In this document: positions 46,794 to 51,477 of the stretch, piece by piece
Layout: each line of letters starts with the position of its first letter
Numbering within the stretch: position 1 is the first letter of the stretch
NCBI RefSeq assembly: GCF_030013595.1
Contig: NZ_CP122768.1
Strand: one strand, 5' to 3'
Length of the DNA: 64,000 nucleotides
From: Escherichia coli
GTDB lineage: Bacteria > Pseudomonadota > Gammaproteobacteria > Enterobacterales > Enterobacteriaceae
Program-made: the position numbers and the translations under genes
The notes under the pieces: generated by a model
What the model saw: only the letters and a program-made list of their open reading frames with translations
Told to the model about the DNA's origin: nothing
The model's database searches: none

Positions 46794-47039
46794 ATGCGAA
46801 TTGAAGTCACCATAGCGAAAACTTCTCCATTGCCAGCTGGGGCTATTGACGCCCTGGCTGGCGAACTTTCCCGCCGTATTCAGTATGCGTTTCCTGATAA
46901 TGAAGGCCACGTATCGGTACGTTATGCCGCAGCGAATAATTTATCGGTTATTGGCGCGACAAAAGAAGATAAACAGCGCATTAGCGAAATTCTCCAGGAA
47001 ACGTGGGAAAGCGCCGATGACTGGTTTGTCAGCGAATAA
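46794..47039 (+). CDS. dinI: DNA damage-inducible protein I
   Basis: ORF 46662..47039 (+); start trimmed to MRIEVTIAKTSPLPAGAIDAL... (81 aa) downstream of the LexA box. Confidence 0.93.
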   Translation: MRIEVTIAKTSPLPAGAIDALAGELSRRIQYAFPDNEGHVSVRYAAANNLSVIGATKEDKQRISEILQETWESADDWFVSE

Positions 47040-47060
47040 TATGCAGTGATTTTTGTTTTT

Positions 47061-47086
47061 GCCGGGTCGCCCCGGCTTTTTTATTT
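47061..47086 (+). terminator. dinI intrinsic terminator
   Basis: gccggg-tcgc-cccggc hairpin followed by TTTTTTATTTT. Confidence 0.7.
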
Positions 47087-47328
47087 TACTTACAAATTTC
47101 GAGTACAAAATTTCTACACTTCCTCAAAATAACTGCACAATATGCTAAAAAAATATGAATGACATGCTGTTTTATTGTTCATATAAATCTTAAAAGCAAA
47201 AATTTATCTGTTCCCCCCTTTAAAAATTCGGTGAATACCCTTACTTATTGGTATACTGAAGTTGCTTCAGATAAAAACGCATTGAACCTCGAATAACGTT
47301 GTCTAGTAACACGAATTAGGGGGCCATG

Positions 47329-47583
47329 ATGGAAAAAAATAATGAAGTCATTCAGACTCATCCGCTCGTAGGGTGGGACATCAGCACCGTTGATAGCTAT
47401 GATGCGCTGATGTTGCGTTTGCACTACCAGACCCCAAATAAGTCCGAGCAGGAAGGGACTGAAGTTGGTCAGACGCTCTGGTTAACCACTGATGTTGCCA
47501 GACAATTTATTTCGATATTAGAAGCAGGAATCGCCAAAATTGAATCCGGTGATTTCCCGGTAAACGAGTATCGGCGTCATTAA
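47329..47583 (+). CDS. bssS: Biofilm regulator BssS
   Basis: ORF 47326..47583 (+); MEKNNEVIQTHPLVGWDISTVDSYDA... (84 aa). Confidence 0.9.
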   Translation: MEKNNEVIQTHPLVGWDISTVDSYDALMLRLHYQTPNKSEQEGTEVGQTLWLTTDVARQFISILEAGIAKIESGDFPVNEYRRH

Positions 47584-47697
47584 CATGACATGACCATCCA
47601 CCCAAAAGGCACCTCACCGGTGCCTTTACCATTTCTGGGTTGTATATCTGCATTCAGTTAATTACTCTGCTTAAACCATGAGAGCAGAGAGAAAAAA

Positions 47698-48816
47698 ATG
47701 AAATACGATCTCATCATTATTGGCAGCGGTTCCGTAGGCGCTGCCGCCGGGTATTATGCAACCCGCGCCGGTTTAAACGTGCTTATGACCGACGCCCATA
47801 TGCCACCGCATCAACACGGCAGCCACCACGGCGATACGCGATTAATTCGCCATGCTTATGGTGAAGGCGAAAAGTATGTCCCACTGGTTCTCCGCGCGCA
47901 AACGCTGTGGGATGAACTCTCCCGCCACAACGAAGAAGATCCCATTTTTGTACGCTCTGGCGTCATTAACCTTGGCCCGGCTGATTCCACATTTCTCGCC
48001 AACGTCGCCCACAGCGCCAAACAATGGCAACTCAACGTTGAAAAGCTCGATGCGCAAGGGATTATGGCCCGCTGGCCAGAAATACGCGTCCCGGACAACT
48101 ACATCGGCTTATTTGAGACTGATTCCGGTTTTTTGCGCAGCGAACTGGCGATTAAAACCTGGATCCAACTGGCGAAGGAAGCGGGCTGTGCGCAGCTGTT
48201 CAACTGCCCGGTCACCGCAATTCGTCATGACGATGATGGCGTAACTATTGAAACGGCTGACGGTTATTATCAGGCGAAAAAAGCGATTGTCTGCGCGGGA
48301 ACATGGGTAAAAGACCTGCTCCCGGAGCTGCCTGTCCAGCCCATACGCAAAGTATTTGCCTGGTATCAGGCCGATGGTCGCTATAGCGTGAAGAATAAAT
48401 TCCCGGCGTTTACCGGTGAACTGCCCAATGGCGATCAATATTATGGTTTTCCGGCAGAAAACGACGCGTTGAAGATTGGCAAACATAACGGAGGCCAGGT
48501 TATCCATTCAGCGGATGAACGTGTTCCGTTTGCGGAAGTGGTCAGCGATGGTTCGGAAGCCTTCCCGTTCTTGCACAATGTATTGCCGGGTATCGGTTGC
48601 TGCCTGTACGGCGCTGCCTGCACCTATGATAATTCGCCTGACGAAGATTTTATTATCGATACCCTACCCGGCCACGATAATACACTGCTCATTACCGGCC
48701 TGAGTGGGCACGGTTTTAAATTTGCGTCAGTTTTAGGGGAAATAGCTGCCGATTTTGCGCAAGACAAAAAAAGCGATTTTGATTTGACGCCATTCAGGCT
48801 TTCCCGCTTCCAATAA
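47698..48816 (+). CDS. solA: N-methyl-L-tryptophan oxidase
   Basis: ORF 47698..48816 (+), 372 aa; FAD-binding GSGSVG motif ([21 protein letters not shown]). Confidence 0.95.
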
Positions 48817-48823
48817 TCATCAT

Positions 48824-48850
48824 TACGGCCTCCAGAATGAGGCCGTTTTT
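48824..48850 (+). terminator. solA intrinsic terminator
   Basis: ggcc-tccagaatga-ggcc hairpin followed by GTTTTT. Confidence 0.6.
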
Positions 48851-48864
48851 ACAGGAGTATTTAA

Positions 48865-48978
48865 TGCGTCGGCTGTTGCACTATCTCATCAATAATATTC
48901 GCGAGCATCTGATGCTTTATCTTTTTCTCTGGGGATTGTTGGCAATTATGGATCTGATCTATGTGTTTTATTTTTAGT
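48865..48978 (+). CDS. yceO: Small hydrophobic protein (yceO-like), about 37 aa
   Basis: Below the ORF-track cutoff; ATG after [45 protein letters not shown]; position matches K-12 yceO. End coordinate +/-2 nt. Confidence 0.5.
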
Positions 48979-49237
48979 TTTCTGTACTGACATAAACTGA
49001 CAAATATTTAATCTCCCTTTCATTTAGCGTGAAAAATTGAATGAGATTCTTCCTGCCTCTACAGCACTCACCAGACCTTCCAAATGCTGAATCCACTAAA
49101 CTTATGAAGATTCTTTCATTATTAATTCAAAATTATTGAAATAAAAATAAATATCATTCAATTTGTTATTTTTGTGTTGCATTTCATTCTCCGACACGCC
49201 ATTTTCTTTCTCTCGCAAATTCGTTTTGGATGCACTT

Positions 49238-49804
49238 ATGTCATTCACAAATACCCCTGAACGCTATGGTGTTATATCTGCGGCCTTACATTGGCTAAGC
49301 GCAATTATTGTCTACGGCATGTTTGCTTTAGGTCTGTGGATGGTCACGCTCAGTTATTACGATGGCTGGTATCACAAAGCACCCGAAGTGCATAAAAGCA
49401 TCGGCATTTTGTTAATGATGGGGCTGGTTATTCGCGTTCTGTGGCGCGTCATATCTCCACCGCCGGGTCCGCTGCAGAGTTATTCGCCCATGACTCGTCT
49501 TGGCGCAAAGGCTGGACATCTCGCATTGTACTTATTGCTGTTCGCCATCGGCATCAGCGGCTATCTGATCTCAACTGCCGATGGTAAACCGATCAGCGTT
49601 TTTGGCTGGTTTGACGTCCCCGCGACCCTCGCCGACGCTGGCGCACAGGCTGACTTTGCCGGTGCCCTGCATTTTTGGCTCGCGTGGAGCGTCGTAGTAC
49701 TGTCCGTTATGCATGGATTTATGGCCCTGAAGCATCATTTCATCGATAAAGACGACACTCTGAAGCGCATGCTGGGAAAGTCGTCATCTGACTATGGAGT
49801 ATAA
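49238..49804 (+). CDS. yceJ: Cytochrome b561-family protein YceJ
   Basis: ORF 49163..49804 (+); start trimmed to MSFTNTPERYGVISAALHWLSA... (188 aa); four predicted TM helices. Confidence 0.9.
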   Translation: MSFTNTPERYGVISAALHWLSAIIVYGMFALGLWMVTLSYYDGWYHKAPEVHKSIGILLMMGLVIRVLWRVISPPPGPLQSYSPMTRLGAKAGHLALYLLLFAIGISGYLISTADGKPISVFGWFDVPATLADAGAQADFAGALHFWLAWSVVVLSVMHGFMALKHHFIDKDDTLKRMLGKSSSDYGV

Positions 49805-49807
49805 AAA

Positions 49808-50383
49808 ATGAAAAAAAGCCTGCTTGGTTTAACCTTCGCTTCCCTGATGTTCTCTGCCGGTTCAGCGGTTGCCGCCGATTACAAAATTGACAAAGAAGGT
49901 CAGCACGCCTTTGTTAACTTCCGCATCCAGCATCTTGGCTATAGCTGGTTATATGGCACCTTTAAAGATTTCGACGGTACTTTTACCTTTGATGAAAAAA
50001 ATCCAGCTGCCGATAAAGTGAATGTGACAATTAACACCACCAGCGTCGATACTAATCACGCCGAACGCGATAAACATCTTCGCAGTGCAGATTTCCTCAA
50101 TACCGCAAAATATCCACAGGCAACATTCACCTCCACCAGCGTGAAGAAAGACGGTGACGAACTGGATATTACCGGCGATCTGACGCTGAATGGCGTAACC
50201 AAACCCGTCACGCTGGAAGCGAAATTAATTGGTCAAGGCGACGACCCGTGGGGTGGTAAACGTGCAGGCTTCGAGGCCGAAGGCAAAATTAAGCTCAAGG
50301 ACTTCAATATCAAAACAGATTTAGGTCCAGCTTCTCAGGAAGTGGATATGATTATTTCAGTGGAAGGCGTACAGCAGAAGTAA
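49808..50383 (+). CDS. yceI: Periplasmic polyisoprenoid-binding protein YceI
   Basis: ORF 49808..50383 (+), 191 aa; signal peptide; 3 nt after the yceJ stop. Confidence 0.93.
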
Positions 50384-50390
50384 GAGTGAA

Positions 50391-50420
50391 ATGTTGCCGG
50401 ATGACACGCATCCGGCAATG
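50391..50420. repeat. REP element between convergent yceI and yceA
   Basis: gccggatgacacgcatccggc palindrome. Confidence 0.65.
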
Positions 50421-50424
50421 ATAT

Positions 50425-51477
50425 TTATTCTGTTGGATCAGGAATGCCCAGTGTTGTATTCAGACGTCCACGAGACTTATTAAAGATCTTATTGCCATTT
50501 TCACGTCCTGCCCGACGGCGTCGCTGTTCTTCAGGCGGTAACGCGCTTTCTTCGCAGCAAATCTCACTACAACAACCTTTGTATTTTTCCGCACATACTG
50601 GACACTGAATAAACAGCAGGTGGCAGCCATCATTTTTACAGTTGGTATGGCTGTCGCACGGCGCACCGCACTGGTGGCAATGCGCGATAATCTCATCAGA
50701 TATACGTTCGCCCATCCGCTCGTCAAAAACAAAATTTTTGCCAATAAAACGTACCGGTAAACCCTGCTCGCGCGCCTTGCGGGCGTATTCAATAATTCCG
50801 CCCTCGATATGCCAGACTTTATTGAATCCGTTATGTTTCATCCAGGCACTGGCCTTTTCACAACGAATGCCACCGGTGCAGTACATAACGATTTTTTTAT
50901 CTTTATGTGCCTGCATCATCTCGACTGCTTTTGGCAGCTGCTCACGGAAGGTATCTGCCGGAATTTCCAGCGCGTTTTCAAAGTGCCCCACTTCATACTC
51001 ATAGTGGTTACGCATGTCGATAAACAATGCATCGGGATCGTCAAGCATGGCGTTCACTTCCGCCGCTTGCAGATACTCACCCACATTGCTGGCATCAAAG
51101 TGAGGATCGTCAATACCGTCGGCAACAATGCGATCGCGAACCTTCATGCGCAGAACCCAGAAGGATTTCCCGTCATCATCCAACGCGATATTCAGGCGTA
51201 AGCCCTCTAAAGCCGGGTCGAAGGCATAGAGCTGTGCGCGAAATGTTTCAACATTGCTCGCAGGTACGCTGATTTGCGCGTTAACACCCTCATGCGCCAG
51301 ATACACTCGCCCAAAAACATTCAGCGCGGTAAACAGCTGATATAAAGCGTCACGGGTCGCCTTAGGATCGGCGATGTGGAAATACTTATAAAACGAAATG
51401 GTGGTTCGCGGTTCGCTCTCAGCCAACATTTTGGCTTTTAACGCGTCGTTGGAAATGCGGTTGTGTAACACTGGCAT
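50425..51477 (-). CDS. trhO: tRNA uridine(34) hydroxylase TrhO (YceA), rhodanese-domain protein
   Basis: ORF 50425..51531 (-); start trimmed to [16 protein letters not shown]... (350 aa); rhodanese active-site Cys (CTGGIRC) and C-terminal Cys cluster. Confidence 0.9.

Follow-up and report, generated by a model that had tools for sequence, protein, structure and literature searches.

Genes and features between solA and yceI

Reading positions 47400-50600 of the window (the whole 64-kb stretch of DNA analysed here) together with its ORF listing revealed the gene order dinI-bssS-solA-yceO-yceJ-yceI of the E. coli chromosome, with trhO listed past yceI on the opposite strand. The ORF listing places solA at 47698-48816, and an intrinsic terminator follows it on the + strand (48825-48850). 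Then come, all on the + strand, the yceO coding sequence (48864-48977, 37 amino acids plus stop), yceJ (49238-49804), annotated as a member of the cytochrome b561 family and matching Pfam PF01292 with 104 bits, and yceI (49808-50383), which encodes a periplasmic YceI-family protein (Pfam PF04264, 167 bits; NCBIfam NF002994, 345 bits). The 260 bp that separate yceO from yceJ (48978-49237) form an AT-rich tract that constitutes the regulatory region of yceJ-yceI.

When a 701-nt query covering the locus was compared with 5426 complete E. coli genomes, 5424 gave a match, nearly all of them at 95-100% identity, and the annotation at the matched genomes read solA, YceO family protein and yceJ. Among some 5400 E. 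coli matches to the segment, five are on records labelled as plasmids. The MG1655 (K-12) counterparts of solA, yceO and yceJ are b1059, b1058 and b1057. The small ORF is the known gene yceO (b1058, Pfam DUF2770), and the AT-rich tract is the yceO-yceJ intergenic region; yceO and its neighbours are already known and annotated, yceO in practically all complete E. coli genomes. It is highly likely that the region consists of two ordinary annotated items, the gene of the inner-membrane protein YceO and the control region of yceJ-yceI. The first-pass annotation had remarked that small membrane protein genes of this kind are often missed. This does not apply to yceO, which was annotated in the genomes checked and whose tagged product has been detected (PMC12529367).

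yceO encodes a predicted single-helix membrane protein

The yceO coding sequence is supported by the ORF listing, Pfam, annotation, conservation in orthologues and AlphaFold2. A Shine-Dalgarno (SD) sequence, AGGAG (48853-48857, + strand), lies 6 nt ahead of the ATG at 48864, and its predicted duplex with the 3′ end of 16S rRNA reaches -6.9 kcal/mol. At this position, 35 of 51 sequences can form an SD duplex at least as strong as -4 kcal/mol. The product matched PF10968 (DUF2770) with a score of 79.9 bits against a cut-off of 25, residues 1-36 of YceO covering profile positions 1-36 of 36. Its mean Kyte-Doolittle hydropathy is +2.05 over residues 16-37 and -0.63 over residues 1-15, and the best 19-residue window starts at residue 16 with a mean of +2.15. 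AlphaFold2, supplied with a 35-sequence orthologue alignment, returned one continuous helix spanning residues 2-36 (mean pLDDT 94). YceO is predicted to be a single transmembrane helix with a hydrophobic C-terminal half. The first-pass annotation had described a small hydrophobic ORF of 37 codons with a good ribosome binding site, encoding a single-helix, yceO-like protein, and our results agree with this description. The ORF itself stands, and only its start, given as 48865, was placed one base too high.

Compared with YceO (b1058) of K-12, the window product is identical over its 37 residues and has the same neighbours, solA and yceJ, but the K-12 record carries nine further N-terminal codons.

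Comparative evidence favours the 37-codon form of yceO over the 46-codon form

Annotation of the start codon is split, the K-12 RefSeq record giving a protein of 46 amino acids (computed mass 5897 Da) and RefSeq PGAP one of 37 (4719 Da). In MG1655 coordinates these starts correspond to 1119447 and 1119420, respectively. The longer form would begin at the ATG at 48837 and include nine extra codons (MRPFLQEYL, 48837-48863, + strand). This stretch overlaps the solA intrinsic terminator, whose 8-bp stem (ACGGCCTC/GAGGCCGT) encloses the loop CAGAAT and is followed by TTTTT. The MFE fold of the terminator is -15.1 kcal/mol (z = -2.47), and GC-rich hairpins occur at the equivalent place ahead of yceO in orthologues; the simple promoter/terminator scanner that we used did not list this hairpin. 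The T run ends at 48850, the yceO SD begins three bases further on, and the yceO start lies 13 nt past the terminator. The ATG at 48837 is thus placed inside the loop/3′ arm of the hairpin, and the nine extra codons are made up of the 3′ arm of the terminator, its T run and the SD that serves ATG 48864.

Upstream of ATG 48837 the anti-SD duplex amounts to only -1.7 kcal/mol, that is, there is no SD. No orthologue from outside E. coli carries a related nine-codon extension: E. whittamii and a divergent Escherichia genome (L005) have TTG in place of the ATG, and beyond Escherichia the sequence is unrelated. In addition, the PF10968 profile starts at the second Met. Because the extension is unconserved, overlaps the hairpin, has no SD, consists of codons that belong to the terminator and the downstream SD, and precedes the start of the Pfam profile, the 37-codon start (ATG 48864) is better supported than the 46-codon start (ATG 48837). 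The K-12 annotation of 46 amino acids probably has the wrong start, and the nine extra codons are probably untranslated.

It is distinctly improbable that the native E. coli product is nevertheless the 46-residue protein, even though this is the length given in the K-12 RefSeq record and in many of the E. coli sequences of the protein collection. An 11-residue peptide consistent with the longer form has been seen by mass spectrometry, only from a plasmid with the synthetic annotated ORF (PMC12529367), and is thus not decisive for the start used natively. The 37-amino-acid form is the one that agrees with PGAP and with the Pfam profile, and the missing SD, the position of ATG 48837 within the terminator hairpin and the unconserved extension all stand against the longer product. 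Should the 46-amino-acid start be incorrect, native cells would not yield any peptide selected from the nine additional residues.

The yceO reading frame is conserved across Enterobacteriaceae

Orthologues were sampled with YceJ as anchor, taking one genome per species and searching 3 kb upstream. The yceO ORF was present between solA and yceJ in 50 of 80 yceJ loci from other species, nearly always with a length of 37-38 codons. The genera that bear yceO include Escherichia, Citrobacter, Enterobacter, Kosakonia, Lelliottia and Leclercia, as well as Phytobacter, Cedecea, Siccibacter, Buttiauxella, Atlantibacter and Franconibacter. Column entropy in the yceO alignment was 0.84, 0.31 and 1.35 at codon positions 1, 2 and 3, respectively, the third position being the highest, and the mean pN/pS was 0.30 in frame versus 0.84 and 2.42 in the other two frames. 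At the protein level N11, R13, H15 and D30 are invariant, and N10, E14, Y19, L22 and W23 are near-invariant. These comparisons indicate that the yceO frame is under purifying selection and that yceO is a real gene. Conservation of the frame across Enterobacteriaceae had been proposed as a check in the first-pass annotation, and the frame proved to be kept in 50 species with solA-yceO-yceJ synteny.

The ORF is very short, very little of its product is found, and some strains as well as Salmonella enterica subsp. arizonae have frameshifted or truncated variants, as might be expected of a functionless frame left open by chance. However, such a frame would not carry a strong coding signature over 50 species, and the pN/pS and entropy values already refute this explanation. 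The invariant polar residues, the match to a Pfam family and the detection of the tagged protein also speak against it, and we give it practically no weight.

In S. enterica subsp. arizonae CCUG 6322T (L008:2627-2737), a stop occupies codon 23 of yceO in place of the near-invariant Trp. With the rest of the frame still recognisable, this copy appears to have become a pseudogene recently. yceO is also missing from the tables that supplement a Salmonella small-protein census.

A word-indexed protein search returned close relatives only, almost all of them labelled Escherichia or Shigella, and an exhaustive HMMER search contributed nothing beyond further orthologues from enterobacteria and mis-called fusions. 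One 59-amino-acid predicted protein (P0001), from a 573-nt ENA contig, consists of full-length YceO fused to the reverse-strand reading of the AT-rich tract (…YVFYF-YFNNFELIMKESS), which implies that this short contig either carries an inversion or is an assembly chimera.

In 30 of the 80 loci, including those of Pantoea, Erwinia, Proteus, Xenorhabdus, Pseudomonas and Superficieibacter, yceJ-yceI occur without yceO, and no diverged yceO was found by HMM search of the six-frame translations of these 30 loci. The existence of yceJ-yceI without yceO in so many loci suggests that YceO is a later addition that is not required by YceJ-YceI. In Superficieibacter (L018:2632-3000, L028:2626-3000), yceO was not found by profile, and the solA-yceJ spacer keeps the CpxR-type repeat described below together with other blocks. 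The ~100 bp between the solA terminator and this repeat, within which a stretch translates as L-A-A-L-L-C-A-V-L-Y-stop, may be a decayed yceO.

Expression and possible role of YceO

A consensus scan of the + strand from 48700 to the yceO ATG (164 nt) found no sigma-70-like promoter. Because the gene lies close behind the solA terminator and the scan showed no such promoter in these 164 nt, yceO is probably transcribed mainly by read-through from solA. Read-through would fit the very low level of YceO in the cell: chromosomal YceO-SPA was visible by immunoblot in K-12 at a very low level, at least 10,000-fold under that obtained from an induced plasmid, and native YceO was undetectable by targeted mass spectrometry (PMC12529367). 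yceO has been described as encoding an acid-stress small protein (PMC12997748; PMC8765455), and PMC12997748 gives Hobbs et al. 2010 as its source.

In the mechanism that we propose, YceO would be translated from ATG 48864 by means of the AGGAG at 48853-48857 and would lie in the inner membrane as one helix. Its N-terminal third, which is basic (R2, R3, R13) and contains the invariant NN(I/V)REH motif, would be cytoplasmic according to the positive-inside rule, and the C-terminal 22 residues would serve as a membrane anchor holding the invariant Asp30, giving a single-pass protein with an N-in, C-out topology. The invariant NN(I/V)REH motif and the buried Asp30 suggest a specific protein partner, and YceO may bind and modulate a larger membrane protein in acid or envelope stress.

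Several single-helix small membrane proteins of E. coli, among them MgrB, MgtS, AcrZ and CydX, modulate larger membrane proteins. YceO resembles them in having fewer than 50 amino acids, one transmembrane helix and links to stress, but it is unrelated to them in sequence and differs in its invariant Asp within the hydrophobic segment and the invariant NNxREH that precedes it. In the literature consulted we found no partner, topology or biochemical activity for YceO. The strict adjacency of solA, yceO and yceJ in 50 species would allow YceO to be a dedicated accessory subunit or regulator of YceJ cytochrome b561/YceI that acts through its membrane-embedded Asp30 and cytoplasmic NNxREH, one conceivable mode being a switch that responds to protonation under acid or envelope stress. 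We hold such a dedicated role to be highly improbable; the 30 yceJ-yceI loci without yceO imply that YceO is at most an add-on.

The yceO-yceJ tract contains conserved blocks at fixed distances from yceJ

The first-pass annotation had noted about 260 bp of very AT-rich sequence up to 49237, leading into yceJ-yceI. The length is exactly 260 bp (MG1655 1119047-1119306) and the GC content 31.5%, compared with 51.4% for the window, with a minimum of 23% over 100 bp. Only 0.2% of 260-bp segments are as AT-rich as the tract, and in the 64 kb they fall into three places, the tract included. The other two are the dinI-bssS spacer (47004-47370) and positions ~2200-2500, with minimum 260-bp GC values of 0.31 and 0.32, respectively. 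Both the length of the tract (mostly ~260 bp) and its GC content (27-41%) are kept in 50 orthologous loci.

Through an 18-species alignment, pattern searches in all loci and column frequencies, we identified conserved blocks located at a fixed distance from the yceJ ATG. Site A (CTAAACTTATGAA, 49096-49108), with the family consensus CGAA-N5-TGAA, or C(G/T)AA-N5-TGAA with its variants, lies at -142 from the yceJ ATG in the window (-140 to -147 in orthologues), and site B (TCAAAATTATTGAA, 49127-49140), which reads TCAA-N6-TGAA and is part of the dyad TTCAA-N5-TTGAA, is found at -111. The two sites are 31-33 bp apart, at fixed distances from the yceJ ATG, in ~36-38 species. Binding sites for IHF, FNR, Fur, ArgR, MetR, CytR, OmpR, PhoB and Cra were considered for sites A and B and rejected for misfits of spacing or orientation to the consensus. 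A palindrome over site A (TGAA-GATTCT-TTCA, 49105-49118) bears a loose likeness to an ARG box; it is E. coli-specific and probably due to chance.

The conserved intergenic length and the presence of a 32-codon ATG ORF (49041-49139) might suggest that a small RNA or another small protein is encoded within the tract. The best Rfam match, however, scored 16.5 bits (E = 0.21), nowhere near the gathering score, and the RNA at the tract ends folds no better than shuffled sequences; the 32-codon ORF lies in the least conserved part of the alignment, with indels, and has no Pfam match. A product encoded in the tract is therefore a very remote prospect, and we interpret the tract as the control region of yceJ-yceI.

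A CpxR-type repeat lies at the yceO-proximal end of the tract

Ten nucleotides past the yceO stop codon, the tract contains a CpxR-type direct repeat oriented on the minus strand (48988-49002), which reads TGACA-N5-TGACA on the + strand. Read on the minus strand it is GTCAG-N5-GTCAG, a 15-mer at 48987-49001. The TGAC…TGAC columns are invariant in the 18-species alignment. A published ChIP-exo data set reports a CpxR peak for yceJI at MG1655 1119273-1119301, with a signal-to-noise ratio (S/N) of 11.47 and at 227 bp from the gene (PMC7657598 supplement). By direct sequence comparison, this peak maps to 48983-49011 of the window and is centred on the repeat. The distal repeat is very probably a CpxR site, occupancy by CpxR being documented by the published ChIP-exo experiment.

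The repeat was recognised through its conservation and the ChIP-exo coordinates, not through a consensus search. A search for GTAAA-N5-GTAAA allowing up to 2 mismatches hit nothing but a non-conserved sequence across the yceO stop codon. The window repeat has 4 mismatches to this consensus and the orthologous sites, with GTCAA or GTCAG half-sites, have 2-4. At the aligned CpxR position, locus L080 shows 0 mismatches and loci L027 and L031 show 1 each. The sequence at this position is a perfect GTAAA-N5-GTAAA in Ca. Pantoea haifensis (GTAAATCAGCGTAAA), and it reads GTAAATAAATGTCAA in Phytobacter massiliensis and GTCAATCAGTGTAAA in Enterobacter sp. RIT418. Like the CpxR boxes of the Cpx regulon, the yceJ repeat is composed of two 5-bp direct half-sites with a 10-bp period and has a ChIP-exo peak on it; unlike them, it has GTCAG half-sites and is located 227-255 bp ahead of the yceJ ATG. 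The repeat is also kept in loci without yceO, and thus belongs to yceJ and not to yceO.

The presence of a CpxR site at the repeat fits the reported induction of yceJ-yceI by Cpx (PMC2731931). yceJ has also been reported to be induced by heat shock, Cpx and Lol inhibition (PMC10607373; PMC5105897), and CpxR sites, one of them with a GTCAA half-site, have been predicted ahead of P. aeruginosa yceJ (PMC12802237). The ChIP-exo peak is modest (S/N 11.5), and with 227-255 bp between it and the yceJ ATG, the site is remote for activation of the proximal promoter. Because of this distance, the CpxR site may serve a second, distal promoter, and TTGACA-like hexamers followed by TAAnnT-like elements are visible near the repeat in the alignment.

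Supplement file 3 of PMC7657598 lists changes in expression of both genes: yceJ (b1057) shows a log2 change of +4.2 in the cpxR knockout in LB and of +5.3 in the zraR knockout, and yceI (b1056) shows -2.1 in the cpxR knockout under ethanol. This is not a simple activator pattern.

The yceJ-proximal promoter has sigma-32-like elements

Close to yceJ we recognised a candidate promoter on the + strand, TTGCAT-N14-CGCCATTTT, preceded by an A/T-rich stretch (49141-49176) in the position that an UP element would take. Its -35-like hexamer, TTGCAT (49177-49182), overlaps GTTGCA (49176-49181), which is conserved at -62, and its -10-like element, CGCCATTTT (49197-49205), includes (C/T)CATTTT (49199-49205), conserved at -39. 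The combination TTGCAT-N14-CGCCATTT at 49177-49204 is conserved across genera. The promoter/terminator scanner listed no promoter on the + strand. On the minus strand, a sigma-70-like match over site B and antisense to yceO (49161-49132, TTGAAT-18-AATAAT, 9/12) was discarded, the region giving 1 match compared with 2.1 in shuffles.

The match of the candidate promoter to sigma-70 is poor, with 3/6 positions per hexamer when it is read as TTGCAT-17-CATTTT. The heat-shock sigma factor sigma-32 recognises the consensus TTGAAA ... CCCCATnT, as in the dnaK and groE promoters. Much as in these promoters, the candidate has a -35-like element, TTGCAT or TTGCAA across genera, then a 14-bp gap and CGCCATTT, although a G replaces the second C of the C-run. 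The -10-like element is closer to CCCCATnT than to TATAAT. A scan of both strands of the window (128 kb) gave a single occurrence of the loose pattern TTGNA(A/T)-N12-16-CCATNT, with ~1.2 expected by chance. The pattern match alone being within chance, the sigma-32-like assignment relies on the invariance of the elements across genera and on the statement that yceJ responds to heat shock (PMC10607373). We tentatively suggest that the yceJ-proximal promoter uses sigma-32, at slightly less than even chances. The first-pass annotation had also proposed that the tract may act as a promoter; with its conserved blocks and the CpxR ChIP-exo peak, the tract does contain promoter and operator elements for yceJ-yceI.

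The tract shows no sign of intrinsic curvature

The same proposal had included curved DNA, which our calculations did not support. AA/TT periodicity at 9.5-11.5 bp was 0.44, compared with 0.75 ± 0.34 in dinucleotide shuffles. In a wedge model, the maximal 31-bp bend was 32 degrees, versus 35 degrees for the 95th percentile of the window, and was below that of 96% of the shuffled tracts. The wedge model predicted a strong bend at 47133-47142, in the dinI-bssS spacer.

H-NS prefers AT-rich DNA, and a GC content of 31.5% over 260 bp with a minimum of 23% over 100 bp could accommodate a tract whose main role is silencing through bound H-NS and/or intrinsic curvature. Neither the periodicity nor the wedge bend gave a curvature signal, however, and the AT-rich sequence, with its conserved blocks, belongs to the vertically inherited core and is not foreign DNA. 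We consider a silencing region unlikely. H-NS binding is possible from the composition of the tract; the factor with binding evidence in it is CpxR, not H-NS.

All in all, the importance of the locus is limited in that its genes are annotated and YceO has already been used as a test case for the detection of small proteins. Control of yceJ-yceI would involve the CpxR repeat at the far end of the tract, a promoter near yceJ, and sites A and B between them. A control region laid out in this way, with a CpxR box, two conserved sites and a sigma-32-like promoter, would provide a concrete basis for the reported induction of yceJ by Cpx and heat shock.
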